Below are positions 7,814-62,555 of a stretch of DNA of 64,000 bases, piece by piece. A program made the position numbers and the translations under genes. Position 1 is the first letter of the stretch. The number at the start of each line of letters is the position of its first letter. This DNA comes from a virus. Taxonomy: Duplodnaviria; Heunggongvirae; Uroviricota; Caudoviricetes. The notes under the pieces are model-generated. The model saw only the letters and a program-made list of their open reading frames with translations. It was not told the DNA's origin and made no database searches. The DNA is taken from positions 1 to 64,000 of IMG/VR virus record IMGVR_UViG_3300031949_000001; one strand, given 5' to 3'.

Positions 7814-7954
7814 TGGCTATCCTCGGAAGGCTTCGAACCCCCGTCCTCTTCGTTTACTCTACTCGTTTCCGGTTAACAAGCAGAGCCGCGACTTGGCTAG
7901 CACTTATCGCAGCTACGCTCCCGAAGTGCTCTAACCTACTAAGCTACGAGGACA
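7814..7954 (-). ncRNA. tRNA-like RNA whose anticodon loop is replaced by a two-hairpin insert
   Basis: Acceptor (T)GTCCTCG/CGAGGAT(A) then GCCA; D arm GCTT/GAGC; stem CTTCG/CGAAG encloses ~70 nt; T arm GGGGG-TTCGAAG-CCTTC. Confidence 0.75.
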
Positions 7955-7989
7955 AAGGAAGTATATCTTAAAACCGATCCTTTTGCAAG

Positions 7990-8571
7990 CTAAACTAACC
8001 AGTCTAGGCGGGCAGCGGAGAAGGAAGGCGTTGCGACAGGCTTGCGGTAAGTGGTCGAGCCACCTATCGTGTGACCCGGCTTGAGGACGCCTTTACATTC
8101 CAGGCAATGGTAGTTTTTTCCACCTAACTGCATCTTCTTGTGGCGAATAGCCCCGACCATGATGACGCGACAATTGCACGAGTACGTATATTGAGTCGTC
8201 TGGCGTGCCTTGGCGTTGCTCACGTCATACTGATGACAGCGATCAGCAGGAAGCCCGAAGGCGCTCATGACGCGCTGCCATTCGTTACCGTGGGGCTTGA
8301 TTCGCTGAGTGGGGTGGAGAGCGTACGCGATCAGGTGCGCGACCTCATGCCCGATTGTCTGCTTGACGTAGTTATCGAAGTTCTCAGCGCAAAGCGTTTG
8401 ATTGACCAGAACGTAATTGTTCCGATAATCCGCTTTGCCGCCTATGGTACCCCGAAGGTCGAACTTGACGACAGGCATCGCGAAATCTTTGGAGTAACGA
8501 ATCCGCGCTTTTTGAACGTAAGCGACAACAGCCAACTGAACTGCTCTGATCTGATCTTGCGTTAGTTTCAT
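7990..8571 (-). CDS. SprT-like zinc metalloprotease
   Basis: HEVAH...PHGNEW zinc motif plus YxCxC...CxxC. Confidence 0.9.
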   Translation of the reverse strand: MKLTQDQIRAVQLAVVAYVQKARIRYSKDFAMPVVKFDLRGTIGGKADYRNNYVLVNQTLCAENFDNYVKQTIGHEVAHLIAYALHPTQRIKPHGNEWQRVMSAFGLPADRCHQYDVSNAKARQTTQYTYSCNCRVIMVGAIRHKKMQLGGKNYHCLECKGVLKPGHTIGGSTTYRKPVATPSFSAARLDWLV

Positions 8572-8683
8572 GACTTCCTCTCAGTTGTTGAAGCAATTGT
8601 ACAGATAAACTTTGTTTAAGTCAAGTCTTGACTCGAACTAATTTTTACTATATACTCTCTTCATCGTTACCGAGGAAAATGAA

Positions 8684-8953
8684 ATGCTCCCGAGATTCTA
8701 TCACTGCGGTTGTTGCGAACAGTACCATGCCGTGGAATTCGATGGCGATTGCCGCGACGATTCCGCGCGCTTCAATCCCGAAGACCTGGACGAGCAGTAT
8801 GGCGATCATGGCTGGGAAGAAATCGATCAGGAAGACCTCGAAGACTATGAAGACTATGAAGACGGCATGTCAGATGCTGAAGCCGATGCGGATACGCTAC
8901 GCTCCGCAGGTTGGGGAACCGACGAAGATTATGGTGGGTGTCACGGGGATTAA
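8684..8953 (+). CDS. Acidic hypothetical protein with CGCC..H motif
   Basis: Own promoter TTGACT-17-TATACT and GAGG RBS; very D/E-rich. Confidence 0.7.
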   Translation: MLPRFYHCGCCEQYHAVEFDGDCRDDSARFNPEDLDEQYGDHGWEEIDQEDLEDYEDYEDGMSDAEADADTLRSAGWGTDEDYGGCHGD

Positions 8954-8974
8954 ATTTATCATTCAGTTCAAACC

Positions 8975-9059
8975 CCGTTTTTATAAGTGGATCTCCATAC
9001 CTCTCCACTGGTCGCCGATACCATAAAAGAATTATACCGGAAAACTTTGTTCATGTCAA
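8975..9059 (-). ncRNA. GRGAGGUAU element, copy C
   Basis: TTGACA-17-TATAAT, then ATGGTATCGGCGACCAGTGGAGAGGTAT. Confidence 0.5.
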
Positions 9060-9326
9060 CTACCAAATGTCTTCACTGTATAAATTCGGTGGCCATTTCA
9101 ACGCTTTGATTTGTCCCGCTGCGATTGCGACCCTTGCACCCGCTTTGCGCATCACGAAACGCCCGTCATTCAGTACAAAACCTTGCTCACCATTGATCGG
9201 TATCGGCTCGCCTGACTCAGCCATGAATTTGATGATGTGATGATGTCTTGCTGGCGGCGGGAGAGTCCAGACCTTATCATCGCGCCCAAGAATGCCAGCG
9301 GCAACGACTGTGAGACCTTCGGTCAT
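9060..9326 (-). CDS. Phage hypothetical protein
   Basis: RHHHI...QGFVLNDGRF...LYSEDIW; start approximate. Confidence 0.7.
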   Translation of the reverse strand: MTEGLTVVAAGILGRDDKVWTLPPPARHHHIIKFMAESGEPIPINGEQGFVLNDGRFVMRKAGARVAIAAGQIKALKWPPNLYSEDIW

Positions 9327-9511
9327 AATCCCAACCATTGGGTTATCCACGAGAAAGGCGGAACCTTTTCCCACAAGTAGTGCTCGAATGGGAAACTGAT
9401 TGTAATTCCCAGCAGAAAGCTACCGACCATGTTGATGGGTTTGTATTTGTGGTAACAGCGGATAAGAAATCCGCGTTCGTCTTTATGGGTATGGAACATT
9501 TCACTTCTCGG

Positions 9512-10102
9512 TTATCGAGTGTGTGTATTGTATTCTTTTATCTTACTCTCGTCAAGCTCACCGTCCTCAAATCTTGCACCAAATCCGCGTTTTTCTCGCC
9601 TCTCGTGCTCACTTTCGGACTTGTTAAATCGTGATCGAATTTCATCCGCTGATTCGACCTTTGATGGTCCTTCTTTTCGGGCGTCACCATAACCCTTGTT
9701 GATGATGGGCGGTCTCGTATAACCCTCCGTTGAGCCTTCGGGATTGTAAGGATTGACGGCTCGAATCTTCTCTCCGTGGTCTATCAGAAATTGGTTTTGA
9801 ATCTGATACGCGAGCTTTTCATTGTACTCACGTCCGAGTATGTCTTTCTGTCTTGGGCAATAGTTCTGCGTGAAATGGACAATCTCATGACACAATGCCG
9901 ACTGTCCAATTTTTGTTTTGAGGTCTATCCGATTATCTAGATAGATGTTGCCGTCAACACACGCGCCTAATACTGGTGATCCAATGATCTGTTTGAGTTC
10001 AGCAGCAGAGACGATTGAAACTACGGGCTTCCGGACTGAATCCATCGGCTCGATGCCGTATGAGTGCAGGAAGAGAAAACAGGCTGCGATTAGTTCGTCC
10101 AT
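9512..10102 (-). CDS. HExxH metallopeptidase-like protein (DUF6647-like)
   Basis: SALCHEIVHFTQ...EKLAYQIQ; related to 46819..47277. Confidence 0.65.
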   Translation of the reverse strand: MDELIAACFLFLHSYGIEPMDSVRKPVVSIVSAAELKQIIGSPVLGACVDGNIYLDNRIDLKTKIGQSALCHEIVHFTQNYCPRQKDILGREYNEKLAYQIQNQFLIDHGEKIRAVNPYNPEGSTEGYTRPPIINKGYGDARKEGPSKVESADEIRSRFNKSESEHERREKRGFGARFEDGELDESKIKEYNTHTR

Positions 10103-10144
10103 GCCCCGTACTCTACGCTAGTTTGGTACTAATTGCAATAGTGG

Positions 10145-10230
10145 TGGTGCTGGTGGTAGGATTCGAACCCACGAAGGCTTTCGCCGCTTGCTTACAAGGC
10201 AAGTCCCGTAGTCCACTTGGGTACACCAGC
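10145..10230 (-). tRNA. tRNA-Thr(UGU) with long variable arm
   Basis: GCTGGTG/CACCAGC-A-CCA; anticodon loop CTTGTAA; variable arm CGGCGAAAGCCTTC. Confidence 0.85.
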
Positions 10231-10235
10231 AAAGG

Positions 10236-10265
10236 AAAAACCTACCACCACCGAGAGCGGTAGGC
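10236..10265 (-). terminator. Intrinsic terminator after the large ncRNA
   Basis: CCTACC...GGTAGG followed by TTTTT on the minus strand. Confidence 0.65.
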
Positions 10266-10600
10266 TAAACCTATTTCAATGAAGTCTCGGTCCAGGACAC
10301 GGTCTTATCGTATCCGCGCTGCCACATACGTCCACTGTCATCGCTTCTACGGGTTTCCCCTCCACTGCCTTTCGGCGACAGTCCACTCGGATTCAAATCC
10401 ATTTCGCGCTTAAGCTGTGTGGTTCGGCTCAACGCTTACTATCCCCGGTAATAGAGGCTAACAATCTCGGGACCGCCTTAGTATTTCGGGTCATAACTCC
10501 CGTCTTACCTACGATCAGGCTTGACCGGTGGTTCAGTTCTGGTAAGCGATGCCCCAAAGGGACTTTCGTTTAGTTTCCGCTGTACAGCATTCTAAGGAAC
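10262..10600 (-). ncRNA. Candidate large structured ncRNA (~340 nt)
   Basis: ORF-free; many hairpins including GAAA tetraloops; 5'/3' closing helix; late-promoter-like AATAAATA upstream, terminator and tRNA downstream. Confidence 0.65.
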
Positions 10601-10642
10601 AGCGTCGCTCTTTACCGTCCATTGACCAGAGAAGTATTTATT

Positions 10643-10945
10643 CTACTGCATGTCAGTCATGTCGTCAAGCATTTGAGCGAAGGTCATAGCCGACTGCCGC
10701 CTTTTAATCGTTTTTTCAGTAACGACCGGAATGCTGGGACGCTTGTCAGAGTATTCGGCGTCCATCCAACAACTTTCGCACGGATAAGATTGACGCTTGA
10801 AACCGCGCCAAACGGGACAGTCATCATCACCATACTTACAACCGTGATTGATGCAACAGTGTTCAGAATGAACGCACCACTTCTCACCAACTGGCGCTAC
10901 GAATGGCGCCGTTGCTATGAGGTATGCGTTCCAGAGGGTTGTCAT
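10643..10945 (-). CDS. Cys-rich hypothetical protein
   Basis: HCCxxHGCKYGDDDCPV...CESC. Confidence 0.7.
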   Translation of the reverse strand: MTTLWNAYLIATAPFVAPVGEKWCVHSEHCCINHGCKYGDDDCPVWRGFKRQSYPCESCWMDAEYSDKRPSIPVVTEKTIKRRQSAMTFAQMLDDMTDMQ

Positions 10946-10947
10946 GC

Positions 10948-11151
10948 CTATACCTTGATGCCAATCGCGAAGGCGATGACTTCACCATCGGCACCCGCCT
11001 TGACGATTCGCTTGGTGCCGCGCTGATGCCAAGCGTTCTTTTTTCCATGCTTGGGCGTGGTAGCCTTCGGTCCCTTACGACCGTTCTTGCGCTGCGCGCT
11101 CCACTCTTTCGCGGCGCGGTTTTGCTTGGAACGCTTGCTGTTGGCAGACAT
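10948..11151 (-). CDS. Small basic protein (paralog of 47555..47743)
   Basis: AKxWSAQRKxGRKGPKAT motif; AGGAG RBS. Confidence 0.75.
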   Translation of the reverse strand: MSANSKRSKQNRAAKEWSAQRKNGRKGPKATTPKHGKKNAWHQRGTKRIVKAGADGEVIAFAIGIKV

Positions 11152-11503
11152 TTCATTTACTCCTGGTTAGAAAGAAAATTGAGGTTGCTGCAAGCAGCTT
11201 TATGTCTAGCAACGCTAGTTTATTTACGGGTTCAGACCCGAACACCCCATCAACAAAAACAGTATATCTTAGTTTTGTTTTTTAGTCAAGTTATTTTGTT
11301 TTTCGATTTCTGTAGTCAGTCTTAACCACAGGCTATCTTCGTATTTACCAATGTTATATCCTTCCGACTCAGCTTTGTGGATTTCATTGGACAATGCCAA
11401 TGCTTTTTCAATCTCGAAAGATTCTAGCACTAGCATAAGTTTTTGGGTAAACATTTATTTCTCCGTTGGTTAATAGACAGTATAACTTATTTTTATTCTG
11501 AAA

Positions 11504-11890
11504 TCAAACTAATCCGTGTAGAGCGTCATCCATGCTCTTCGGGTTATCGATGTCTTCGCCAACCAGCGTATTGTAGTCTGAACCATCGTCAGCAGATTCA
11601 ATATCATCCATTTGCTTCGGACCGTAGATGTCACCAGCTTCCGCTGCTGCATCCCAAAGCGCACCAACCGGCTCCTCGAAAACGGGATCATACTCCTCGA
11701 TGTCATCCGTGGTGTACTCGGAGACGCACGGATTCCCGTTGTGATCGATCCACATACGAAACACGTAATCCGAACCCGGATCATGCGAGAAGTGAAAGCT
11801 CCTCGCGTCGATGATCGCATCACCTTCGGACGCGAACGGCTCGGAAATATCGGGCGTGCCCGAACGCATGTACAGGTTAAAGTGTTTCAT
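11504..11890 (-). CDS. Acidic hypothetical protein
   Basis: Minus-strand operon; D/E-rich. Confidence 0.65.
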   Translation of the reverse strand: MKHFNLYMRSGTPDISEPFASEGDAIIDARSFHFSHDPGSDYVFRMWIDHNGNPCVSEYTTDDIEEYDPVFEEPVGALWDAAAEAGDIYGPKQMDDIESADDGSDYNTLVGEDIDNPKSMDDALHGLV

Positions 11891-12051
11891 CTGTTACCCT
11901 TTTCGGAGAAGTGAACCACCAGCCAATCATGTCGAAGCTGACATTGGAAGGGGAGCATGTAATCGTAAGGCAATGAATACCACTACGGATAGGGTTGTCA
12001 ATTGCACCCACGAAGACGAGATTTGTAGAGACAAGCATCATACTAGTAATC

Positions 12052-12582
12052 TTACTTGTTTTGTTTTTCGATGTCAAGCAGATGCCGAACCTTTTCGATT
12101 TCGACTGTGGTATGTGCGACACCACCAGCGTTAAGGTCGATGTACCACTGAAGCACTTCCGCCCGAGTCTTCAGATTGTTGACGTTCATCAGGAAATCAC
12201 AATGCGCCAACCGAAGCTTATCGGTGTACTCCTCACGCTTATGTCCGAACGCTGGAATCTCATTCCCTAGGAATCGTAGCACTGCCGAGATGCGTTGCTT
12301 CCCATCTACTAGTACCATTGGACCTTCAAAGGTTTGCATCCACCCCTTGCAGTTCCAATAGATCACGCGGCTCGACTTACCACCCTTCAGCATGAATTCG
12401 ACGTAACGGATTTGCTGCTCTTCCGACCAGACATGCCCACGCTGAAAATCGGGGTCCATCTCGAAGGTGTACATCCGCTCATCGCGATTGCTGGCAATCC
12501 AATTTTCGAGGTAATCCCAACCAACGTTAACTTCGTAGGAACCGGACCGCGTCATTTGTGGAATGTCAGCAAACTTAGGCAT
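12052..12582 (-). CDS. Stand-alone DUF262 (ParB/Srx-fold, GmrSD N-terminal-like) protein
   Basis: PDFQRGHVW and VDGKQR motifs. Confidence 0.85.
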   Translation of the reverse strand: MPKFADIPQMTRSGSYEVNVGWDYLENWIASNRDERMYTFEMDPDFQRGHVWSEEQQIRYVEFMLKGGKSSRVIYWNCKGWMQTFEGPMVLVDGKQRISAVLRFLGNEIPAFGHKREEYTDKLRLAHCDFLMNVNNLKTRAEVLQWYIDLNAGGVAHTTVEIEKVRHLLDIEKQNK

Positions 12583-12787
12583 TGGCGAGCCGCCCAGCGT
12601 CGAGTAGAACGGAACCGATGAGCCTATCCAGCCCATCGGCATCCGTTGCGTTATACTTTAGGACGTACATCCAATCGGACACGTCACGATACTGCTGCCC
12701 GTTGGACTCGTCATACTTCAGCGAGCAAAGCGCGTCAATGACGCCCTCTGCTTGCGCTTGTGTAAGATTGAGATTGAGTGTTACCAT
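12575..12787 (-). CDS. Hypothetical protein
   Basis: Coupled operon. Confidence 0.55.
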   Translation of the reverse strand: MVTLNLNLTQAQAEGVIDALCSLKYDESNGQQYRDVSDWMYVLKYNATDADGLDRLIGSVLLDAGRLANA

Positions 12788-12795
12788 TTTGGTGT

Positions 12796-13008
12796 TTAGC
12801 GGACCTTGGTAATGAACCCGTCAACGAGCGTCACGATGGCGTACCACGCATGCGGTGTGGGATAGTGCGGACCCTCGACGGTGAAGTTTCCGTTGACAGG
12901 ATCGGGCGCGTTGAACATATTGTTAGGCTGATAGATGGCGACCTTTTTGCCAGCAGCAACGGCTTCCTTGAGAGCTTTTTTCGTTTTGAAGTTGGTTTCG
13001 GTGTACAT
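12796..13008 (-). CDS. Phage hypothetical protein
   Basis: NFKTKKALKEAV...EGPHYPxPHxWYA; own promoter upstream. Confidence 0.75.
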   Translation of the reverse strand: MYTETNFKTKKALKEAVAAGKKVAIYQPNNMFNAPDPVNGNFTVEGPHYPTPHAWYAIVTLVDGFITKVR

Positions 13009-13084
13009 TTCGTTTAGCCTCTCTTGATGTAGCTATTATATCGATAAACTTTGTTCAGGTCAAGAGCTATTTTAATTGAATAAG

Positions 13085-13157
13085 ACAAAAGCGAAACCCC
13101 ATAGCGCTATGCGCTTCGACCGAAGGTCTATACCTCCTCGCTGGTTAATACACAACC
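13085..13157 (-). ncRNA. GRGAGGUAU element, copy D (no own promoter)
   Basis: AACCAGCGAGGAGGTATAGACCTTCGGTCGAAGCGCATAGCGCTATGG; hairpins match copy F. Confidence 0.5.
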
Positions 13158-14108
13158 GAACCCAGCGCCTCATACTCGGCAGTGTGCGCGTTCGGGAATT
13201 CGCGGTCGGGTGCGATAATCAACGCCACCAACTCCGCTGCTTCCTTGTTAGGAGCATCGACAGAGATGACAAGGTTACTGTACGCAACGCGAGAAATGGT
13301 TACATTGAATAGCATTTTAACCTCGATTGGTTTGGTGGCTGGGATTGCGCAGTATCGCCTTTATATCGACTCGCGTCAAGCGGTTTGTTTAGCGTGCTAT
13401 GCTATTCCTGATATTCGACTTCGGTGATCTCGCAGGTTTCACCTTGAGAGATAACCGATTCGCTCTTGAAATAGGCTTCGATTGTGTCATGATCGGAGAG
13501 TTTGGACGGGTCGTCAATTCCCGTATCCAGGTCCACGTCTTCGACTAGCCAGTAATCCCGGCACCAATCGGCGACCACTGCCTCAGCGTTCGCGTGCGAG
13601 TTCCCAGCATACAGAACGTCGATACCTGCCCCGGTCGAGATGATTGCGAGATGAATTTTCATAGTGGTAACCAGACTCCGATGATTGAATTATACCACGC
13701 GACTGTGGCGATTGTCATGCTTTCGCCCGCTCTTTTGAATCGAGCGAACATATAGACTTCTCCCTGCGGATTGCGGAAAATCCAAGGGCGTCGCAGTTGA
13801 TGCCGTGTCAAGTCCAGGCGCTTGCGTTTTGCCTGGAGTAGTGAATAGGTTGCTTCGTCGCCGGGCGGTGCGTAGTTACTAGTAATGATTGTCATACTCC
13901 TCCGACCTTTCGTGCTTCAACCTTTCGCTTGAGTTTGATACAGGCGCGTTTCGCGTTGCGTAGCGCCAATTTATGGAGCACTGCCTTTCCGTTTCGGTTG
14001 ATTGCGCGATATGTCCGTCCGCCAATCGTTTCGACTATGGTTTCATAAGTCCAACGATCAGGCGATACCTGCATCAACTTCCATTCCCAATGCGTGACTT
14101 CCATTTTA

Positions 14109-14843
14109 CTAGTAACTCCGAATTGTGAAACCGGTGGTGTCCCGCTTGGCGCGACCCTTTGCGTTCAGAACAATGATACTACCTTTCCTGTCCAAAAAGC
14201 GCAAGTCATTTTCGTCGCCATCCGCTACATTGTCCTGCGTCAACGCCCATGCTTTGACTTCCTTGGTACAAACCACGGTAATGGTATGTCCAAGAGTCTG
14301 TAACACGCGGCAAGTCGCATGATTGTTTTCGGCGGCGCTGAATGTCAGATGATAGTTAACCGGGAATCCCGGTTTGCCTTGCTGTAGCGCACGATACGCG
14401 ATTTTGGTGTAGTCATAGAATTGTATCGTCGGGAAGCGCTCGAACATATTGCGATGCTGCCCCATGCGAATCTTTTCCCAAGGCAAATCGCTTGTCCCGT
14501 TCGGGCGCACAACAAGCGTCAAGCCTAACTTGCAGGCACGCTTCTGTGCGTGGATGATATCCGCCTCAAGCAGAGACATGAAACGCTCACGTTGCTCGAA
14601 AAACATAACGGTGCGACGCTTGCGAGCATTCTGCACGCGGTTTGTCGTTTCACCTTTTTTGAACATTCCGCCACGCCCCGCAGTATTGAGACATGCTGCG
14701 ATGCAACCGAGCGAAGCGGACGGGCAAACTTGATAGCCTGACAGGGTGGACGGCGCCAAGTGTAGGATAACCGAGTAGTATCCGACCTTTTCACCCTTGC
14801 GGACCTTGATGTTAGCCTCAGTCAATAGATCGTAGCGTGCCAT
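14109..14843 (-). CDS. GP88-like phage protein with CX7CX3C (possible Fe-S enzyme)
   Basis: CPSASLGCIAACL, RPNGTSDL, QFYDYTK and YHLTFS motifs. Confidence 0.7.
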   Translation of the reverse strand: MARYDLLTEANIKVRKGEKVGYYSVILHLAPSTLSGYQVCPSASLGCIAACLNTAGRGGMFKKGETTNRVQNARKRRTVMFFEQRERFMSLLEADIIHAQKRACKLGLTLVVRPNGTSDLPWEKIRMGQHRNMFERFPTIQFYDYTKIAYRALQQGKPGFPVNYHLTFSAAENNHATCRVLQTLGHTITVVCTKEVKAWALTQDNVADGDENDLRFLDRKGSIIVLNAKGRAKRDTTGFTIRSY

Positions 14844-15072
14844 ATTTTACGATTGCTCCGTTTGTTGGTGCTCGCGACTTACAATATTGCTTAATACCGT
14901 TATCACAAGTGCCACGATGAGAATAATTCTCACAATCAAGAAGACTGTGGCTTCGAGTGGTCTAAGGATTGTGTCCATGCGTGTATAATACGCGAATCAG
15001 TTCATCCTGTCAAGCATTAAAATAATCAAAATAGGCTTGACGTGAACAAAGTTATTTGCTATACTGCTTCTC

Positions 15073-15315
15073 ATGGAATACGTGATCGAAATTGCAAAAA
15101 CAAACGGAACCGAAATGGTTTCGTTGAGCAAGGGCACTATCGTTACCACTACTCGCAGCATGGAATTCGCGAGCAAGTTTAAGGTGCGAGCCCGCGCCGA
15201 AACGATTGCAAAGCGCCTGCAAGGTGCGACCATTGCGCCTTACTATGGTGGCATTGTAGTCTCAAATAAGGCAACCGTGCAAGGTCCGCAAGCTGACCGT
15301 GTACGTCGGAATTAA
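15073..15315 (+). CDS. Hypothetical protein (probably leaderless mRNA)
   Basis: ATG lies 7 nt after the -10 of TTGACG-17-TATACT. Confidence 0.6.
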   Translation: MEYVIEIAKTNGTEMVSLSKGTIVTTTRSMEFASKFKVRARAETIAKRLQGATIAPYYGGIVVSNKATVQGPQADRVRRN

Positions 15316-15349
15316 CAGAATTTAAGGTTTCCTCCTGTGTGGCGTTTTT

Positions 15350-15384
15350 GGCGGGTCGAGCAGTAAGCTCCCCGCCGTTTTTTT
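15350..15384 (+). terminator. Intrinsic terminator
   Basis: GGCGGG..GAGC/GCTC..CCCGCC followed by a T run. Confidence 0.75.
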
Positions 15385-15399
15385 CAATTCTGTAATATA

Positions 15400-15482
15400 A
15401 AGTAGAAGTTGATACCTTCCCCCTCGGGGCGGGTTGGCCTTCGATCTATAACCATTATATCCTAGAACAATGTTCGAGTCAA
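15400..15482 (-). ncRNA. GRGAGGUAU element, copy E
   Basis: TTGACT-17-TATAAT, then AGATCGAAGGC..GCCCCGAGGGGGAAGGTAT. Confidence 0.5.
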
Positions 15483-16070
15483 GGATTATTTTTACTTAAA
15501 TATCCGGTTCTGGCGGCGCCTTGCATCAGCGCGAGCGCGACGCATGCGCAAGCTGATATCATCCTGTTGGGTGGTGTCATTCCAGCGGAAAAACCTGTAG
15601 ATCAGGCGCTTAAGCATTTTGTCCCTTGGTATCAACGTAACCGTGCCCCTTATTAGCACTCACATACAAGTCGGGACCATAACACTTGACGTAATCGACT
15701 TCCCCGTCATCGGACTGAATCTCAGACCAGTGCGAAAGGAATATCACCCGAAAAAGCTTACCGTCCGCCTCGCGCTTGAGAACTGAAGTTGAAAGCATTG
15801 TTAATTCCTTATGACGCTTATTTTACCAAGCTTACACCCGAGTTTCTGTTCGAGTTCAAATGTAGCGTCGAGAATTCCCCAACCGTCCTCGCTGTCGTTC
15901 AGGTCCAGATACATATGCTCGGTGCCTGCTTTGACATTCGTGTAACCTGCGGCGATTGCGCGCTCGCAAAGTTCCTTGACTGCAACTGGTCCGGTGTAAA
16001 CCCTTGAACGCTTCAGCATGTTTTGCTCCTGTCTCGATTTTGTTTATTATATCAGAAGGGTAGATCAGCG

Positions 16071-16325
16071 TCAAGCACTTCCAACTGCTTTGAAGTTCGA
16101 GCCTTCCTTACGTGCCTGCTCCATTTCCCACTCGTAATCAGCCAGAGCTTCGAGTTCGTGCGGATGAGGCTGGGCAACGCCATGATAATGCGGGTTGCGT
16201 TCCCAAGTATCGTAATCGGAAAGAAGCCATTGAGAATCAGGAAAATCCTCGCCTACGTTCCAAGCCCACTCGCGACATGCTTCGCCCGGAGTAGCCAGAT
16301 GATCGTTTTCGTCGTAGCCGAACAT
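16071..16325 (-). CDS. Hypothetical protein
   Basis: QWLLSDYDTWERNPHY; divergent promoter pair upstream. Confidence 0.65.
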   Translation of the reverse strand: MFGYDENDHLATPGEACREWAWNVGEDFPDSQWLLSDYDTWERNPHYHGVAQPHPHELEALADYEWEMEQARKEGSNFKAVGSA

Positions 16326-16442
16326 TCGTTTTGTTTCCCTTTCGTTAGTGTGAAGCTATTGTACGCTATTATTTTTATTAAGTCAAGCTTGCATTTTGAT
16401 TTTTATCAGTGTATAATAGCCGTCATCAATAGGAGAAACCCA

Positions 16443-16685
16443 ATGCAAGTTATTACCATGTATCGCTCGACCGATGGATCGTCTTTCGGTACCGAAGAAG
16501 CATGTAAGGCGCACGAGTTGATACTCGATGCTACCACACAAATCATGGAGCTTTTGGAGCGTGATGATTGGGTTCGCAGCAACGGCAATTTATGCGGTCC
16601 CGCCACCGATTTTGTGAGCCAATTGCTCAGTACCAATTTCGGGTCGAAAGTCTATACTATCCTGAGCACCGTTCATCGCAAATAA
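16443..16685 (+). CDS. Hypothetical protein
   Basis: AGGAG RBS and promoter upstream; start re-called. Confidence 0.65.
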   Translation: MQVITMYRSTDGSSFGTEEACKAHELILDATTQIMELLERDDWVRSNGNLCGPATDFVSQLLSTNFGSKVYTILSTVHRK

Positions 16686-16732
16686 CACTTGCGACAGAGC
16701 ATTAAGTTTGCTATAATGCCTTTGTTGGTTAA

Positions 16733-17281
16733 TTGGAGATGAAACGAATGAATACCGAACCGCGTTTTACCACAATCGAGCAGTTGGTTCCCTTCCTCAT
16801 GTCCCTGCGTTCGGCTCAGGTTGCGACCATTGTCGCCGTGACCGAAGTCAAGATGCGCAAGACTGGCAACCCTTTCATCGGGACTCGTAAGGTCCAGAAA
16901 CTCAAGGTGGAAGTCAACAACAATTACGAAAACAAGGTGAATGACGCCCGCGATGCTGAAGGCTCTGCGACCGATTTTGAAGCCAAGCCCTTGCAATGGG
17001 GTGAGCATGCGAGCGCTGCCGTGATCGAAAACAAGGGTGTGTTGTACCTGCAAACCATCGTCCTGGAGCGCGACGCTTCGCCTACCTACATCGATTTGCA
17101 CGGGAACTATGTTCCGTGGGAAAGCCTCAAGGAATTCATGCCACCGTATCGCCCGAACGCCCGCCAAGAACTGGAGCAAGAGGTTAAGGTTCGGACGTGG
17201 AAACTCACCAGCATTTACGCGCTGTGGATGGGCGACCGTCATATCTACAAGGCTTCTGGCATCGTGGGACCGCAAGCATGA
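16733..17281 (+). CDS. Phage hypothetical protein
   Basis: KMRKTGNP...YENKVN; codon usage consistent with neighbours. Confidence 0.75.
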   Translation: MEMKRMNTEPRFTTIEQLVPFLMSLRSAQVATIVAVTEVKMRKTGNPFIGTRKVQKLKVEVNNNYENKVNDARDAEGSATDFEAKPLQWGEHASAAVIENKGVLYLQTIVLERDASPTYIDLHGNYVPWESLKEFMPPYRPNARQELEQEVKVRTWKLTSIYALWMGDRHIYKASGIVGPQA

Positions 17282-17483
17282 AAACCTTTCTCAAATTCAT
17301 TGTAGCAATCGCCCTAGTGGTGGTTGCTGCTTTCTACCTCACTTTCGTCCTGATCGTGCTGGCTTGTATCATTGGGCTAGGCTTCTTGCTGATTTGTTAC
17401 TGGATTGTATCAGGCGTTCCGTTCTATAGTAAGAAGAACGGCAAGATTGTCGCCGAGTATCGCAGACTTCGGAGGGTGAAATA

Positions 17484-17747
17484 ATGTCAAATCGAGTCTT
17501 TCTTCTATCGACCACGTTCGTTGACTGTTCGGGCGAGTCCTATGGCTTTCGAGTCTCGGATGAGTATGACAAGGCATATTACAATTACCTTCAGTTGCCC
17601 GTCAAGGACGACATGGAAATCCTCAAGGTCGCAATCGAGACCGATGAGTTTTCACAATTCGCTGACTTTCTCCGAGACATCGAGTCGGGTTTGACAATTA
17701 ATGACACTTACTACGACTGGAGTCAGATAAAAGAATTCTTCGAATAG
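17484..17747 (+). CDS. Hypothetical protein
   Basis: GGAGG RBS. Confidence 0.65.
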   Translation: MSNRVFLLSTTFVDCSGESYGFRVSDEYDKAYYNYLQLPVKDDMEILKVAIETDEFSQFADFLRDIESGLTINDTYYDWSQIKEFFE

Positions 17748-17842
17748 TATTGCTTAATGCAGCCATTTCTGATAATATGGTTGCGTTAGGTGGAAAAGGT
17801 TCCCCTAAACACATTGTAGTCTAACCCTTTAAGGAGTTTAAC

Positions 17843-18124
17843 ATGAATTTCACCGTCGATCAGTTTTCCGAAGCAAACAGCGTCGAGAAGCCCGTTGCGT
17901 ATGGTTTCCTGCGCTTCCTCGCCGAACGTGGTTTCGCCACTACAACCAAGACCGACAAGGTTGCGGGCAAGCGCGGCAAGCCCAGCACGATTTACACGCT
18001 GACCGAAGGCGCCGTCGCCTTCCTGGGTTCCAGCGTCAAGGAATACGTGGCGCCTGTCGCCACTGTCGAAGCCGCCGTGGCTGTCGAAACCTCTCAGGTT
18101 GCCGAACAGTCCGCCGCTGTCTAA
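17843..18124 (+). CDS. Putative winged-helix DNA-binding protein
   Basis: GKRGKPSTIYTL wing-like motif; strong promoter and AAGGAG RBS. Confidence 0.55.
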   Translation: MNFTVDQFSEANSVEKPVAYGFLRFLAERGFATTTKTDKVAGKRGKPSTIYTLTEGAVAFLGSSVKEYVAPVATVEAAVAVETSQVAEQSAAV

Positions 18125-18204
18125 TCGAAGCGGAATATCTTGACAGAATTCAACGGTGCGGGTATTATACCTGCACCGTTTCTCATTAACAAGGACTAAC
18201 TATC

Positions 18205-18624: not shown

Positions 18625-18719
18625 AAATGATACAAAACATGCGTTACAAACAATCTTTGTATTGCGAATGTGAAGATTGCGAATGTGAAGATTGAATCGG
18701 TTTTAAATGGGGAAATTCT

Positions 18720-18828
18720 TTAACTTTCCCGTACTTTAGGAACGGGAAAGTTAGAATCGATACCTCCCCACTACCACCTGATGGCATCGAATATAAATAA
18801 TTATACTCGATAACTTTGTTTAAGTCAA
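18720..18828 (-). ncRNA. GRGAGGUAU element, copy G, ending in a 12-bp hairpin
   Basis: TTGACT-17-TATAAT; TCGAT..AGTGGGGAGGTATCGA; then TAACTTTCCCGT/ACGGGAAAGTTA. Confidence 0.55.
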
Positions 18829-21478: not shown

Positions 21479-21482
21479 ATTA

Positions 21483-54879: not shown

Positions 54880-54894
54880 TAAGAAATAAAGCGG

Positions 54895-54988
54895 CGGAAG
54901 GAAGGGGATTTGGACCCCTGACACGATGTATGAGATCGTATGTCCAGCCCTTAACTGGATGCCTTAAACCAGGCTCAGCCATCCTTCC
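54895..54988 (-). tRNA. tRNA with Ser-type body and AAG (Leu) anticodon
   Basis: GGAAGGA/TCCTTCC, G73, long variable arm, loop TTAAGGG; followed by CCG. Confidence 0.75.
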
Positions 54989-56647: not shown

Positions 56648-57169
56648 GTGAATAAAGAAAAGGTTAAGGAAATGTTTAAGGTTGTAGAACATCTACGTCC
56701 ATATGCTCTAGTGTTAGTCGGTCTTCCTGGGACTGGCAAGTCTACTTTTGTCTCTCAACTCCCCCCACATTTCGTTGTTTTGTCTACTGACAACGTTATG
56801 GAGCGTCTGGCTAAGGAATTGGAAGTATCTTATAACGAAGCCTTCAATCTTGTTGGTTGGGAAGCGGCTGAACATCAGTATTACGAAGAATTTGCCGCTG
56901 CCACTGCGGCAGGTAAGGATATCGTTATCGATCAGACCAATGTGAGTATAAAGGTTCGTCGTCGTAAACTCTCACGTATTCCGGCTCACTACCACAAAGT
57001 AGCGGTTATCTTCACTCTTCCGGAAGATGTCCTGGCGGAACGGCTCACTGTGCGTGAAGCAAAGACCGGCAAGAAGATTCCACCACATATCATGGCGGAT
57101 ATGATCGAACGTTGGGAAGATCCAACCAAGGCAGAGGGCTTTGATAACATTGTTATTTTTAAAGATTAA
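56648..57169 (+). CDS. P-loop kinase (AAA_33 / polynucleotide-kinase-like)
   Basis: GLPGTGKST, STD, IDQTN, EGFD. Confidence 0.88.
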   Translation: MNKEKVKEMFKVVEHLRPYALVLVGLPGTGKSTFVSQLPPHFVVLSTDNVMERLAKELEVSYNEAFNLVGWEAAEHQYYEEFAAATAAGKDIVIDQTNVSIKVRRRKLSRIPAHYHKVAVIFTLPEDVLAERLTVREAKTGKKIPPHIMADMIERWEDPTKAEGFDNIVIFKD

Positions 57170-60367: not shown

Positions 60368-60372
60368 AATTT

Positions 60373-60469
60373 GGGACAATAGTTCAAAAGTAGAACGGTA
60401 ATCTCGGCGTTCATAGACGTGTGATATTAGTCCAGACAGATACGGGTGAGAGTCCTGTTTGTTCCACCA
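60373..60469 (+). ncRNA. tRNA-like RNA with elongated anticodon arm
   Basis: GGGACAA/TTGTTCC-A-CCA; D arm GTTC/GAAC; long irregular arm tipped by CATA; T loop TGAGAGT. Confidence 0.65.
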
Positions 60470-60477: not shown

Positions 60478-60548
60478 CTCCTGTCTGATGGACAGCATTT
60501 AGGTTGCGAGCCTAAATTGGGTCGGTTCGATCCCGACACAGGGGTCCA
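60478..60548 (+). tRNA. Compact tRNA-Arg(GCG)
   Basis: 71 nt; 3-bp D stem with 5-nt loop; 6-bp anticodon stem; loop TTGCGAG; CCA. Confidence 0.65.
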
Positions 60549-60789
60549 ATTTTTAAGGAAAGACAATGAATAAAGTGAAAATAGTGAAAGGCGAAAATTG
60601 GATTTTTTTGAACAATAAAGACACTGGATATGTTTTTTGTGGTGTTGAGGATGAATTTCCATCAGGATTAATTTTGGATTTAGCTTGGGCGCTTAAAGAG
60701 GAGCTAAAGAATGATAGGAGATTTTCAGAAGACGAAAAAGAAGCAATCCTCGATGAAGTAGAAAAACATGCTAGCATGATTATAGAAAT

Positions 60790-60864
60790 GGCTTCTTAGC
60801 TCATCGGTAGAGCGTCGTCTTGATAAGGCGGGGGCGGAAGGTTCGATTCCTTCAGGAGCTACCA
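60790..60864 (+). tRNA. tRNA-Ile(GAU)
   Basis: Loop TTGATAA; CCA. Confidence 0.88.
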
Positions 60865-61113
60865 GTTAACGGAGAGAAACATGACAGAGGAACCTAGTAT
60901 TTTTATTGATATTGTTGCGGAACCTACAAAATCGATTGTTTTGAAAAAGAATGGACCGGATTGGTTTACTCTTTGGGTTTGGGATATTGATCCAACCAAA
61001 CCGACTTGCTGGTGCGAAGGCGATTCGTATCACTTCAACGCAGAAATGGTTCAAGAAATTCAAATCTCGAAAAAAGATTCGCTTGACAAGTTAGGTGTAA
61101 AGTAGTACATTAC

Positions 61114-61184
61114 GCCCCTACCAAGGGATGGAGGCAGAACTTCTAATTCAGCCGTTGCAGGTCCGAATCCTGCTGGGGGTGCCA
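61114..61184 (+). tRNA. Compact tRNA-Arg(UCU)
   Basis: 71 nt; same compact fold as 60478..60548; loop CTTCTAA; G73; CCA. Confidence 0.7.
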
Positions 61185-61641
61185 TTTTAAGGAGAGAAAA
61201 GATGTTTGTGAAACGATCCGTTACTTGGGAAGCTTTTGATAGAGATTGGTGTCCCACTTGTGTGAAGAAAGTTGTGATGAAACATATTCAGACAAACTTG
61301 CCGGGTATCGCTGCACAACAGTGTCCCGAATGTAAAACTGGTTATCAGGCAAACTACCTCGAAGACGGAGAGGATTTGTTGGATGTGCCCGAACATTTGA
61401 AATTCGAAGAGGTCTAAGGGAATATATGAGAACAAAGAAAACATATGCGTTAGATTTAGTGGATGATATTATTTCCGATTATTTTTACTATAACCGAAAA
61501 GACGATGATGTGTTGGGTCGAAATGATATGAAAGCGTTAATTGAAAGCGGCGAATTAACGGCTGATGAAATCGTTGAAAGGTTTCGTGAAGGTATTAATG
61601 ATGCTATGGCAAATTTCAATTTGCTGAAGTGAGAAGACTAA

Positions 61642-62088
61642 ATGAGTACTCTGGAATTTTGGGAAATTTTGGTTCCAACGACTCGTCCTGACGGGAGACC
61701 GATCAAGGTTCGTTACCACAAAGTTTGGGATAAAATGATCAATGGCATTGCCGGTGGTTGTACAGTGTTGAAACCAACCAAAGGCAAGTGGGTTGCTCCT
61801 GATGGGGCAATATTTGAAGAAAGAATGATTCCGATCAGGATCGGATGTACAAAAGAACAGATTGACATCATCATCGATTTGACCTTAGAATACTATGACC
61901 AGAAGGCGGTTATTGCATATAGAATCAGTAACGAAGTCATTCTGAGACATAGGAGCAGTCATGGTAAAGAGCGAATTGATCAAAAGATTGGAGCAGCTAA
62001 TAAAGCAGTGGAGAGAACCGACAGGTTGGATTGCACTGACGGGCTTGCACAACACCAGCAACGAGATGAAGGAATATCTCAGGGGTAA
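61642..62088 (+). CDS. Phage hypothetical protein
   Basis: WEILVP...ERMIPIRI...YYDQKAV. Confidence 0.7.
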   Translation: MSTLEFWEILVPTTRPDGRPIKVRYHKVWDKMINGIAGGCTVLKPTKGKWVAPDGAIFEERMIPIRIGCTKEQIDIIIDLTLEYYDQKAVIAYRISNEVILRHRSSHGKERIDQKIGAANKAVERTDRLDCTDGLAQHQQRDEGISQG

Positions 62089-62367
62089 GGAAGCGGCTGC
62101 TGAAGATTGTTCTAGAGATTTGCAGGATGTGATTGATGAAGCAAAAGACTGAACTCAGACTTTTGCAAGCGAATCTATGTGTCGATTTAGAAGGTAGAAA
62201 ATGAATAATAAATTACCAATTTTTTGTATCTTTTAATGCGAGACTACTTGCCAACTGGTGTGGTCTGTAGTATAATCGCCGAAGTTGAAAAAGTAAAAGG
62301 TGAGCCAGAGTTCACTAACAAAGAACTTGCTGAGATGGCTCAGCGATATAGTAAAGAGATAGACAAT

Positions 62368-62460
62368 TCCACGGTACTCTAATGGTAATGAGGACGCACT
62401 GTTAATGCGTTGCAATCCGTCTTGAACGGTATGGAGGTTCGAGTCCTCCCTGTGGAGCCA
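62368..62460 (+). tRNA. tRNA-Asn(GUU) with long variable arm
   Basis: U1:A72, G73, loop CTGTTAA; 22-nt variable region with CCGT/ACGG hairpin. Confidence 0.85.
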
Positions 62461-62464
62461 AAGC

Positions 62465-62555
62465 ACACTAAAGAGAGCATGGTTCAATTCCATGCCAATG
62501 ACCATAAGCCTACGGGTAGCTGGTAGGAAGCATATTGGTGGATGCGACTTAGTGT
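62465..62555 (+). ncRNA. Circularly permuted tRNA-like module
   Basis: ACACTAA/TTAGTGT closing stem; T arm CATGG-TTCAATT-CCATG precedes CCAATG-ACCA; partner strand CATATTGG and a D-like TGGATGCGAC follow. Confidence 0.5.

Follow-up and report, generated by a model that had tools for sequence, protein, structure and literature searches.

Remodelled tRNA genes of a jumbo-phage array may be a mixture of three kinds rather than one system

The first 64 kb (64,000 nucleotides, here termed the window) of the 378,912-bp genome of an uncultured IMG/VR jumbo phage raise the question of why a phage should carry, alongside about 22 ordinary tRNA genes, variant forms in which whole parts of the tRNA are remodelled. 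A preliminary description of the window listed 11 such elements and proposed that they form one tRNA-mimic or tRNA-armour system. All 11 are present where it placed them, as judged by ARAGORN, Rfam, and hand reading (11/11), and a 12th, at 42819, was missing from its list. The proposal of one system is not supported: the set is mixed, with decoders that are conserved, a single non-decoder that is conserved too, and young pieces specific to the lineage. Our preferred reading, which we hold with about even confidence, is that the "repertoire" is a mixture of three kinds that arose from the fast evolution of jumbo-phage tRNA arrays.

ARAGORN identifies 28 tRNAs in the window, and 29 in intron mode, which gains 7814–7954 (−). 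Rfam RF00005 gives 25 matches over the gathering threshold and, with permissive filters, also 7818–7953 (−) (41.8 bits, 69-nt insert) and 42819–42890 (37.7 bits). Two of the listed elements, 40558 and 44054, are missed by ARAGORN and score only 16.6 and 18.9 bits in Rfam. Non-canonical T loops are also seen in several "normal" tRNAs of the phage. Below, G000 denotes the window's phage genome and L-numbers denote loci of relatives (G002 is L032); Xanthomonas phage XacN1 is a distant relative.

Decoding tRNAs with extra arms or compact D regions

Five of the remodelled genes have the features of decoders:

10145..10230 (−), 86 nt: tRNA-Thr(UGU) with a 12-nt GAAA-capped variable arm (ARAGORN; Rfam, 54.8 bits)
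48395..48489 (+), 95 nt: tRNA-Ile(UAU) with a long variable arm and A73 (ARAGORN; Rfam, 45.6 bits)
60478..60548 (+), 71 nt: compact tRNA-Arg(GCG) with U73 and CCA (ARAGORN)
61112..61184 (+), 73 nt: compact tRNA-Arg(UCU) with a short D arm (ARAGORN)
62368..62460 (+), 93 nt: tRNA-Asn(GUU) with an extra variable arm (Rfam, 53.8 bits)

The long variable arms described for the Thr, Ile-UAU, and Asn genes are real by ARAGORN, Rfam, and hand reading, and shortened D regions are seen in both Arg genes described as compact (60478 and, in the earlier numbering, 61114). Each of the five retains a 7-nt anticodon loop, the anticodon itself, and, in acceptor and discriminator, the features of its own amino acid, and would be a functional decoding tRNA. 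Comparison with relatives shows, at the level of sequence, that these genes are conserved and under structural selection; they would represent phage-specific tRNA families, long kept, often next to a normal copy with the same anticodon.

The Asn gene provides the deepest alignment. It has U1-A72 and G73 and a variable arm, UCCGUCUUGAACGGUAUG, that is conserved in sequence, an invariance that is partly a product of the search pattern. The arm motif occurs in 5 IMG/VR viral and 37 metagenome contigs and in 0 of 185,579 cellular genomes; the extra-arm Asn type is a phage-only family, with a further member in L016. Among 29 distinct sequences, 99.0% of cells are paired, versus 72.5% after shuffling; 174 cells have both sides changed (double compensatory); and covariation is present at every acceptor and anticodon-stem pair. 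A normal Asn-GUU adjoins the extra-arm variant in G000, G001, G002, G004, and L058, and Asn-GUU tRNAs with other arms are present in XacN1 and L070. In XacN1, the extra-arm Thr and Asn tRNAs are the sole copies.

The Thr gene has a Thr-type acceptor (G1-C72, C2-G71, A73). The syntenic Thr-UGU genes of L008, L013, and L015 are without the extra arm, and extra-arm Thr-UGU is found again in XacN1, G001, L051, and L056; XacN1 and G001 have no other phage Thr-UGU. The long-arm Ile-UAU tRNA is conserved in syntenic L039:12107-12201 and in G002, where compensatory changes are seen; extra-arm Ile-UAU is found in three lineages, one of them syntenic. In Arg-GCG, the D stem follows directly after the acceptor (CUG/CAG, 5-nt loop), an architecture repeated in L016:2645-2718 with compensatory anticodon- and T-stem changes and copied in L058 at 98.6% identity. 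In Arg-UCU, the anticodon stem is 7 bp long and contains a conserved A-A mismatch, and the acceptor register is ambiguous; its L058 counterpart is only ~77% identical within flanks that are >90% identical, with the loop CUUCUAA kept and compensatory stem changes.

A survey of 505 distinct tRNAs from 51 sources places extra arms on Asn-GUU, Thr-UGU (5/18), Ile-UAU (3/5), Cys (3/9), Met (5/35), Gly-UCC (2/12), Gln, and Lys, and on none of the surveyed Ala, Asp, Glu, Phe, Pro, Trp, Ile-GAU, Thr-GGU/CGU, or Val-UAC/GAC tRNAs. In the same tally, with motif-selected Asn excluded, the bias toward U36 is weak (16/150 versus 12/253). Leu tRNAs in the same arrays have lost their arm 14 times, and this, together with the missing Thr-UGU arm in three syntenic relatives, indicates that the variable region may simply be labile.

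What the altered architecture might do is suggested by the anticodons on which extra arms cluster: among them are Thr-UGU, Asn-GUU, and Lys, reported in the literature as targets of the PARIS nuclease AriB. This enzyme, which also reads the D loop, cuts Lys-UUU, Thr-UGU, and Asn-GUU tRNAs between positions 40 and 41 (PMC12409363), and the variable loop gives T5 tRNA-Tyr its resistance to PtuAB (PMC13096335). The AriB site UAAUCA shows no clear depletion, being present in 6/30 extra-arm Asn tRNAs versus 5/9 normal Asn tRNAs. Defence tRNases (PARIS AriB, OLD, PtuAB) would read the inner-corner surface of the tRNA, namely the D loop, the 3′ side of the anticodon stem, and the variable region. We tentatively infer, with somewhat less than even confidence, that an extra arm or a shrunken D region alters this surface, so that translation would continue while host tRNAs are being cleaved. 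Nuclease evasion is plausible given the position of extra arms on AriB-target anticodons and the presence in the phage of tRNA-repair enzymes and a Ro60 homologue; the conserved variants may aid escape from tRNA-cutting bacterial enzymes. Of the remodelled genes, only those with a variable arm gain indirect support for nuclease resistance in this way.

A conserved non-decoder and lineage-specific pieces

The remaining elements depart further from a decoding tRNA:

7814..7954 (−): tRNA-shaped RNA (Rfam, 41.8 bits; ARAGORN intron mode)
40556..40682 (+): tRNA-frame RNA (40558) between tRNA-Pro and tRNA-Phe (sequence reading; Rfam, 16.6 bits)
42819..42893 (+): tRNA-like gene outside the earlier list (Rfam, 37.7 bits; missed by ARAGORN)
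44054..44184 (+): tRNA-derived RNA (hand reading; Rfam, 18.9 bits)
54893..54988 (−): class-II tRNA-like gene (ARAGORN only)
60373..60469 (+): tRNA-like RNA with A-CCA (Rfam, 37.1 bits)
62465..62560 (+): ~100-nt module (fold)

The RNA at 7814, a putative conserved tRNA-shaped non-decoder, has an 8-bp acceptor with G-CCA and normal D and T arms, and its anticodon stem encloses ~69 nt that fold as two hairpins; it cannot decode. Homologues in L008, L015, and L083 bring the family to four members, all located 3′ of an SprT-like gene, in which 5/5 pairs of the second insert hairpin are compensatory. The hairpin loops carry the palindromes GCUAGC and UCCGGA/UUCGAA. The RNA probably arises by tRNA-processing cleavage of the SprT operon transcript and would act via its two hairpin loops on a partner.

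By sequence comparison, 40558, 44054, 54893, 60373, and 62465 are lineage-specific tRNA-derived pieces without counterpart in the relatives compared, except for 62465 in one; they would be young insertions, in some cases probably a by-product of turnover in the array. Specifically, 40558 has an 8-bp acceptor (2 G-U), a D arm with GG, and a canonical T arm, is without CCA and without a 7-nt anticodon loop, and contains ~50 extra nt including the palindrome GCCUUGCAAGGC; no homologue was detected among the relatives' loci compared. The RNA at 44054 has a perfect 7-bp acceptor, A73, CCA, D and T arms, and the T loop UUCGAAU. Its earlier description as an expanded anticodon arm remains one of two readings; in the other, the supposed variable-arm hairpin would represent a canonical anticodon arm, with CAU as anticodon in the loop AUCAUAA, and the ~50 extra nt would separate the D and anticodon stems. 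It is absent from syntenic L039, where a deaminase gene directly follows tRNA-Pro(CGG). The element overlaps ORF 44119-44673 if that frame is read from a GTG start.

The gene at 54893 had been described, at 54895, as a Ser body with an AAG anticodon, and indeed its acceptor (GGAAGG/CCTTCC) and G73 are as in the phage's own tRNA-Ser, all phage Leu tRNAs having A73. Its anticodon loop is Leu-type (AAG, G37), its T loop is UCCAAAU, and its 3′ end is GCC then G (no full CCA). It has no tRNA match in Rfam and no promoter-like site, and it forms a ~140-nt insertion relative to L039, antisense to its neighbours. In 60373, the D loop is without GG, the T loop is UGAGAGU, and 40 nt replace the anticodon arm (36 nt in place of 13 in the Rfam alignment of 60373-60466); it is absent from L016 and from L058, which is 91–98% identical and has Lys and Arg-GCG 7 nt apart. 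The element at 62465, earlier described as a permuted module, is no permuted decoder: in its fold, an 8-bp helix closes off three hairpins, of which the first is T-arm-like (GGUUCAAUUCC), the second capped, and the third D-arm-like. It is 95% conserved in L058, where two substitutions leave the T-like stem paired via G-U, and recurs only in this near-identical relative, being absent from L016; it has no YrlA match in Rfam.

The additional gene at 42819 has the anticodon loop CAUUAGG (A33, UUA), a non-canonical T loop, and a G-CCA end, and its 5′ and 3′ ends are similar to those of a 109-nt insert-bearing tRNA-like gene of XacN1. L039 has no room for a copy, since a gene begins 12 nt after its syntenic Thr-GGU.

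Alternative explanations

The preliminary description argued against decay on the ground that stems stay paired despite divergence. This is shown only for 7814, 48395, 60478, 61112, and 62368, for which relatives exist; 54893, 60373, and 44054 are absent from relatives, and 40558 has no detectable homologue. Five to six of the remodelled genes are therefore not simple decay, since relatives indicate purifying selection on structure. As an account of the whole set, relaxed constraint is unlikely. It holds that, because phage tRNAs supplement rather than replace those of the host, inserts, lost D nucleotides, and odd loops build up neutrally, the odd elements being pseudogenes or array junk generated by duplication, homing-endonuclease activity, and recombination. 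The absence of 60373, 54893, and 44054 from close or syntenic relatives fits it, as do the restriction of the Thr extra arm to this lineage, the gain and loss of arms in both directions, the lack of a promoter-like site and an Rfam match at 54893, and the odd T loops of "normal" tRNAs, which are compatible with relaxed constraint. It is opposed by the one Asn arm sequence kept across 29 sequences while all other stems covary, by compensatory changes in the Ile-UAU, Arg-GCG, Arg-UCU, and 7814 families, by intact anticodon loops and discriminators, and by the sole-copy status of the extra-arm Thr and Asn tRNAs of XacN1.

Three further explanations invoke phage-encoded or host proteins, and the gene context bears on each:

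56648..57169 (+): AAA_33/KTI12-type kinase, PNK-like (Pfam PF13671, 9.2e-22)

This kinase is possibly the tRNA-repair partner of an intein-bearing RNA ligase just past the window, which G000 encodes at 74.9–82.3 kb with PTH2 and a Thg1-like protein. G000 also encodes a Ro60 homologue, a 540-aa TROVE protein (~319.6–321.2 kb) with a tRNA-Sec-like RNA ~570 nt upstream, and TROVE is also present in G001. It is rather improbable that 62465 especially, and perhaps 7814, 40558, and 60373, are Y-RNA-like partners of this protein, tethering it, YrlA-like, to nucleases or tRNA enzymes. Phages do carry YrlA RNAs, whose tRNA-like domain is defined by a hairpin order (T, acceptor-like, D) that 62465 shares; however, in our own reading 62465 is without the YrlA-conserved motif GNCGAAN(0-1)G (PMC4201824). 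In addition, YrlA and Y-RNA covariance models match none of the elements, the TROVE gene lies ~257 kb or more away, the topology of 7814, 60373, 40558, and 44054 is that of an ordinary tRNA whose acceptor end is free, and XacN1 has odd tRNAs and no TROVE match. We give equally little weight to decoys, a version of the preliminary proposal in which the non-decoders would bind and sequester anticodon nucleases, toxins, or tRNA-modifying enzymes, the decoders being simply resistant. The retained acceptor, D, and T arms are read by many tRNA-binding proteins, tRNA-repair genes are nearby, and abundant phage tRNAs blunt tRNase defences (PMC13096335, PMC11555353), but the anticodon loop or stem required by most known anticodon nucleases is missing, and among non-decoders only 7814 is conserved. 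Least probable are introns, excised by an endonuclease, with the phage kinase and ligase rejoining the halves into working tRNAs, much as yeast (Trl1) and T4 (Pnkp/Rnl1) do with their healing-and-sealing enzymes. The inserts do lie in or beside anticodon arms, the phage does encode a PNK-like kinase and an RNA ligase, and ARAGORN does model 7814 with an intron; yet the inserts, at 36–70 nt, fall far below the size of group I introns, no PF01974 splicing endonuclease was found in the phage genome, the ARAGORN anticodon differs per 7814 homologue (Asn, Arg, Ser), no excision yields a canonical loop in 4/4 members, and the 7814 insert is itself conserved and covarying.

Comparison with known systems

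The mixture favoured here resembles several known systems in part. Nematode nev-tRNAs and other eukaryotic tRNAs, reportedly described by Hamashima et al. in 2016 (cited in PMC5389517), have class-I anticodons (Gly or Ile) on long-variable-arm bodies, and the phage tRNAs likewise combine a long variable arm with class-I species; unlike these Leu-bodied, mistranslating eukaryotic tRNAs, they have Asn, Thr, Cys, or Gly features in both acceptor and discriminator. The T4 species 1 and 2 RNAs (rnaC, rnaD) are stable small non-decoding RNAs processed with the tRNAs of the T4 cluster and, compared by description, are like the non-decoding RNAs inside this array; they are not known to enclose an inserted domain within a complete tRNA frame.

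YrlA is a helix-closed tRNA mimic (T, acceptor-like, and D hairpins) found in Ro60-encoding phages (PMC4201824), and 62465 alone shares its topology; it differs in that it matches no YrlA covariance model, is without the conserved Ro-binding motif, and does not adjoin the TROVE gene. The irregular tRNAs of Mukai et al. 2017 comprise allo-tRNAs and 8/4 tRNA-Ser and tRNA-His from bacteria and phages (PMC5389517). Like allo-tRNAs, 54893 combines Ser identity (long arm, G73) with a Leu anticodon, and non-canonical cloverleaves occur in phage tRNA clusters in both cases (PMC5389517); the acceptor/T branch, by definition 8/4 or 9/3 in allo-tRNAs, is 7/5 in 54893 and in the extra-arm tRNAs, and the extra-arm tRNAs retain the identity set of their own anticodon. 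T5 counters PARIS AriB with tRNA-Lys(UUU), Thr(UGU), and Asn(GUU), phage copies of the defence-cut isoacceptors (PMC11555353, PMC12409363), and Retron-Eco7/Septu PtuAB with a tRNA-Tyr whose resistance sits in the variable loop (PMC13096335). Two of these isoacceptors, Thr-UGU and Asn-GUU, are also recurrent extra-arm species in this phage group; the T5 variants are point changes in a normal architecture, whereas here, as known from sequence, a whole arm is added or the D region is shortened.

Inventory of tRNAs and tRNA-like elements

The source record, a phage genome of an estimated 94% completeness, spans 378,912 bp, of which the window is the first 64,000. ARAGORN predicts 58 tRNA genes in the record. 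The window holds 28 of them, or 29 when introns are allowed, and some 22 of these look near-normal, in line with the roughly 20 of the preliminary description. Rfam RF00005 gives 25 window matches above the gathering threshold of 29 bits, to which permissive filters add 7818–7953 (minus strand) and 42819–42890. No tmRNA was found by ARAGORN tmRNA mode in the whole genome, and RF00023 has no match in the window. All remodelled elements of the preliminary description are present at its positions, and we added one, 42819. Named by window start coordinate, with RF00005 scores where matched, they are:

7814 (match at 7818–7953, minus strand): non-decoding tRNA-shaped RNA with a 69-nt insert between its anticodon-stem strands; 41.8 bits
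10145: Thr-UGU with an extra variable arm; 54.8 bits
40558: non-decoding tRNA-shaped RNA; 16.6 bits, below gathering
42819 (42819–42890): tRNA-like element with A33, anticodon UUA, and an odd T loop; 37.7 bits
44054: tRNA-like element with a possible CAU anticodon; 18.9 bits, below gathering
48395: Ile-UAU with an extra variable arm; 45.6 bits
54893: Ser body with an AAG anticodon
60373: non-decoding tRNA-shaped RNA, 36 nt in place of 13, D loop without GG, T loop without UUC; 37.1 bits
60478: compact Arg-GCG
61112: compact Arg-UCU
62368: Asn-GUU with an extra variable arm; 53.8 bits
62465: hairpin module

The long variable arms described for Thr-UGU, Ile-UAU, and Asn-GUU are visible in both Rfam and ARAGORN drawings. 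In particular, the three depart from the class-I rule of a 4–5-nt variable region by forming 3–5-bp hairpins there, and their acceptor and discriminator features still match Thr, Ile, and Asn. The Ser body of 54893 is borne out by an acceptor stem and G73 that are those of the phage's own tRNA-Ser, and both compact Arg tRNAs indeed have shortened D regions. The remodelled anticodon arms proposed for 7814 and 60373 stand; 44054 may keep a canonical CAU arm, and an Rfam partial alignment suggests that its extra arm lies between the D and anticodon stems. A single unifying "system" across the remodelled tRNAs is not supported.

Both 40558 and 44054 also escape ARAGORN; read by hand, they have acceptor, D, and T arms. 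Elements 54893, 60478, and 61112 have no Rfam tRNA match at E up to 5–10. Decoding competence was judged by a 5-bp anticodon stem, a 7-nt loop, U33, and a purine at position 37, features that are present in 10145, 48395, 62368, 60478, 61112, and 54893, and possibly in 44054 (loop AUCAUAA). Such a loop is absent from 7814, 40558, and 60373, and 42819 has A33. ARAGORN also reports a class-I-sized "tRNA-Tyr(AUA)" at 42384–42458, whose loop CAAUACA, like that of 42819, has A33 for U33.

Relatives were gathered by protein look-ups and DNA patterns. Compared locus L058 is 91–98% identical to window 57.8–67.6 kb, loci L016–L018 are syntenic with 59.8–72 kb at lower identity than L058, L039 is syntenic with 34.5–52 kb at ~70% DNA identity, and L008–L015 and L083 cover the SprT neighbourhood (7.8–10.2 kb). 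Xanthomonas phage XacN1, linked through a 32%-identical tail-sheath fragment, is the sole cultured relative, and a distant one. Its tRNA region and that of the window phage have almost no protein similarity in common, so XacN1 supports the trait and not orthology. Megablast and blastn of the arrays against the phage collection gave ordinary tRNA matches only and no close cultured relative; IMG/VR scans seeded with the 1056-aa and 162-aa proteins gave no match, and one seeded with the terminase gave only fragments without tRNAs. Self-BLAST of the genome with 11 odd elements returned self-matches only, and comparison of the ends of six odd elements with the tRNAs of the phage itself revealed no close paralogue.

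Several further features were noted. A NUMOD3-motif homing-endonuclease-like gene (39525–40178) between two tRNA-His genes recalls SegB, a driver of tRNA-locus amplification in the tRNA region of T4/T6 (PMC13096335). Suppressor-type tRNAs recur, with amber tRNA-CUA outside the window (G000:268404–268479, minus strand), in XacN1 (two copies, L002:7048–7206), and in IMG/VR record G002 (L032:693), and with two opal tRNA-UCA in IMG/VR record G001 (L028:794–1006); despite the tRNA-CUA elsewhere in the genome, recoding of TAG to Gln opened no longer frames in the window and was rejected. Window 6000–26000 has a G+C of ~0.49 (~0.40 elsewhere) and short, mostly minus-strand genes, including a GP88-family protein (14109–14843) and the SprT-like gene, and relatives carry a GmrSD_N-domain gene at the equivalent block. 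A PLP-dependent ornithine/arginine-type decarboxylase (50518–51657) within the tRNA region and an AdoMet decarboxylase within that of a relative (L016:3362–3715) suggest phage-encoded polyamine synthesis.

Extra-arm class-I tRNAs are conserved phage-only families

Among textbook bacterial tRNAs, a long variable arm is carried only by those for Leu, Ser, Tyr, and Sec. A table of 505 distinct tRNAs, drawn from 51 sources, shows extra arms on Asn-GUU, Thr-UGU (5/18), Ile-UAU (3/5), Cys-GCA (3/9), Met-CAU (5/35), Gly-UCC (2/12), Gln, and Lys, with single cases on a few other species. In the same table, extra arms are absent from Ala (15 tRNAs), Asp (21), Glu (24), Phe (15), Pro (35), and Trp (13), and from Ile-GAU (24), Thr-GGU/CGU (14), and Val-UAC/GAC (23). 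The typical arm is a 3–4-bp stem with a GAAA-type loop cap. Ser-like D arms occur in the Thr, Cys, and Gly forms, yet acceptor and discriminator features remain those of the cognate amino acid (A73 in Thr, U73 in Cys and Gly), identity elements being counted by established E. coli rules. The converse also occurs: 14 Leu tRNAs in these arrays lack the long arm and keep A73.

The Asn-GUU family is the most extensive case. Its members carry U1-A72 and G73, typical of tRNA-Asn, and an arm that is a fixed hairpin, UCCGUCUNGAACGG. A search pattern comprising the variable arm and the start of the T arm matched 42 phage-type contigs (five IMG/VR records, G001–G005, and 37 metagenome contigs) and had no match in 185,579 cellular species genomes. 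Among the 29 distinct sequences, 99% of cells are paired, as against 72.5% after shuffling and at most 51% with partner columns slid, and double changes occur at 7/7 acceptor pairs and 5/5 anticodon-stem pairs (174 cells). Outside the arm the molecule has almost wholly diverged; the invariance of the arm itself is partly ascertainment, because the search pattern fixes its sequence. Bodies of other tRNAs also bear this arm, namely six Gln-UUG and two Met-CAU. A normal-sized Asn-GUU shares the array with the extra-arm form in at least five phages, which argues for separate roles.

Ile-UAU, Thr-UGU, Arg-GCG, and Arg-UCU are the other conserved decoders of altered architecture. Extra-arm Ile-UAU is also present in syntenic L039 and in G002, with changes in the stems and retention of the anticodon loop and A73; the exact anticodon-arm pattern gave three chance matches, none with tRNAs. 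Extra-arm Thr-UGU recurs in XacN1, G001, L051, and L056, and in XacN1 and G001 it is the sole phage Thr-UGU. The window's Thr-UGU gene is normal-sized in all three syntenic relatives, indicating rapid gain and loss of the arm. The odd 5′ half of Arg-GCG is kept in L016 with compensatory anticodon- and T-stem changes, and the window and L058 copies of Arg-UCU show 23% divergence within >90%-identical flanks, with loop and pairs kept.

In XacN1 the extra-arm species are Lys-CUU, Gly-UCC, Thr-UGU, Cys-GCA, and Asn-GUU; its genome paper lists 26 "canonical" tRNAs per repeat and does not mention the arms (PMC5852040). Metagenome sources of the extra-arm families span soil, freshwater, marine, and gut, and our literature search found no published description of extra-arm class-I tRNAs. 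We conclude that these tRNAs, above all Asn, constitute conserved phage-only families.

Possible roles of the added arm

Targets of the PARIS tRNase AriB are Lys-UUU, Thr-UGU, and Asn-GUU; the cut falls between positions 40 and 41, and the D loop is read by the second subunit (PMC12409363). The added arm would emerge between these two contact points and, more generally, would sit where Toprim/OLD-type and PtuAB-type tRNases are expected to grip (D loop, 3′ anticodon stem, and variable region), while synthetases, EF-Tu, and the ribosome would still accept the tRNA. The overlap of the extra-arm species in the 505-tRNA table with the AriB target set (PMC12409363) is correlative. The AriB site UAAUCA is present in 6/30 extra-arm and 5/9 normal tRNAs, no clear difference, and the bias of extra arms toward U36 is weak (16/150 versus 12/253, tallied without the motif-selected Asn). 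The main rival explanation is neutral lability of the variable region, to be set beside the rapid turnover of the Thr-UGU arm on one side and the shared arm and paired divergence of the Asn family on the other. Nuclease evasion through a remodelled variable and D region is the best-supported mechanism, with a likelihood we put somewhat short of even. That extra-arm Asn-GUU, Thr-UGU, Ile-UAU, Lys, Cys, and Met tRNAs serve as a widespread phage-only counter-defence by sterically blocking tRNases we hold to be unlikely. The sequence-fixed Asn arm might additionally recruit a phage protein.

The window encodes a PNK-like kinase, and G000:74964–82318 (L041:10964–18318), among tRNAs just beyond the window, encodes a PTH2 peptidyl-tRNA hydrolase, a Thg1-like 3′–5′ polymerase, and an RNA ligase containing an intein with a LAGLIDADG endonuclease; a 2H phosphoesterase had no Pfam confirmation at E ≤ 0.001. 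The phage appears to invest in repairing and rescuing tRNAs. Should the arm prove protective against tRNA-cutting immunity, it would represent a new, easily tested evasion principle. It would also illustrate, in a natural case, the extent of architectural change in tRNA that the translation machinery tolerates, which is useful for tRNA engineering. Since XacN1 is cultured and carries five extra-arm tRNAs, the question is open to bench work now.

Non-decoding and lineage-specific RNAs

Homologues of 7814 lie downstream of the SprT-like gene in L008–L012, L015, and L083, and are absent from the L013 and P0024 contigs, where the following gene begins immediately. Neither of two family patterns matched anything in IMG/VR, and the second had no match in cellular genomes either. 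The structure was drawn by hand; RNAalifold on three sequences mis-folded the D arm. The insert comprises two hairpins, of which the second has four different stem sequences, paired in 4/4 members, with 5/5 pairs compensatory. The first-hairpin loop contains an invariant palindrome, GCUAGC, and the second-hairpin loop contains UCCGGA, UUCGAA, or, in the window copy, CCGG, a paired change of C/G to U/A preserving the palindrome. Speculatively, such loops would suit loop–loop dimerisation or a dimeric binding protein.

An intron-bearing tRNA was considered for the inserts, which measure 36–70 nt. Removal of an intron should restore a canonical loop, and a ribozyme fold of at least 200 nt or a splicing endonuclease should be present. 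ARAGORN intron models disagree between 7814 homologues, no splicing endonuclease (PF01974) was found in the genome, and Rfam gave no ribozyme family. Because no excision gives one consistent loop and no splicing endonuclease is encoded, 7814 is not an intron-bearing tRNA. In related arrays, at L037:13596 (IMG/VR record G005) and L033:5678 (G002), ARAGORN separately models a tRNA-Leu(UAA) whose intron measures 226 nt (group-I size) and a "tRNA-Ser" whose insert measures 1109 nt. An Asn-type frame (UCC...GGA-G-CCA) at L016:7768–7915 has a three-hairpin insert of ~72 nt in its anticodon loop, at a site that holds a normal tRNA-Asn in the window's genome (G000:67199).

Other elements are lineage-specific. 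Element 60373 is absent from L058 (Lys to Arg-GCG spacing 7 nt) and L016, and 40558 has no homologue among the compared loci. Element 54893 has a Leu-type loop with AAG and G37, yet G73, the phage's Leu tRNAs all having A73; it is a ~140-nt insertion relative to L039, antisense to its neighbours, with an aberrant T loop and no promoter-like site. It resembles allo-tRNAs in its long arm, G73, and Leu anticodon, and was rejected as one on its 7-bp acceptor and 5-bp T stem, which are not an 8/4 or 9/3 branch (Mukai 2017). L039 lacks 44054 and its upstream tRNA-Glu. The layout at L053:6690–6770 resembles a circularly permuted tRNA gene: first come a T arm and a 3′ acceptor strand (UCUCUCG), then, 17 nt downstream, the matching 5′ acceptor strand and a D arm similar to the 5′ end of 44054. 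The 185-nt spacer between tRNA-Pro(CGG) and tRNA-Glu (43790–43974) has a long closed multi-stem fold (−46.6 kcal/mol), and L039, with 42 nt from tRNA-Pro(CGG) to a deaminase gene, lacks room for it.

A 540-aa TROVE/Ro60 homologue is encoded at G000:319563–321185 (minus strand; L086:5564–7186), and ~570 nt upstream on the same strand is a tRNA-Sec-like RNA (G000:321755–321843; L086:7756–7844; 32.4 bits, below gathering). The two are a candidate phage Ro/Y-RNA pair. A TROVE protein is also encoded by G001, and XacN1 has no TROVE match. The conserved 7814 RNA, and the putative pairing of tRNA mimics with a phage Ro60, supply further candidates for the small class of tRNA-shaped regulatory RNAs.

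The 62465 module is 95% conserved in L058, where two changes in the T-like stem preserve its pairing by way of G-U; L016 lacks the module. It has no RF02553 or RF01053 match, and the YrlA motif GNCGAAN(0-1)G was not found in it by eye. Its T-like, capped, and D-like hairpins follow one another inside a closing helix, and this order, alone among the elements, is that of the YrlA tRNA-like domain, with T, acceptor-like, and D hairpins within a closing helix (PMC4201824). The two differ in setting: YrlA adjoins the Ro60 (rsr) gene, whereas 62465 lies ~257 kb from the TROVE gene.
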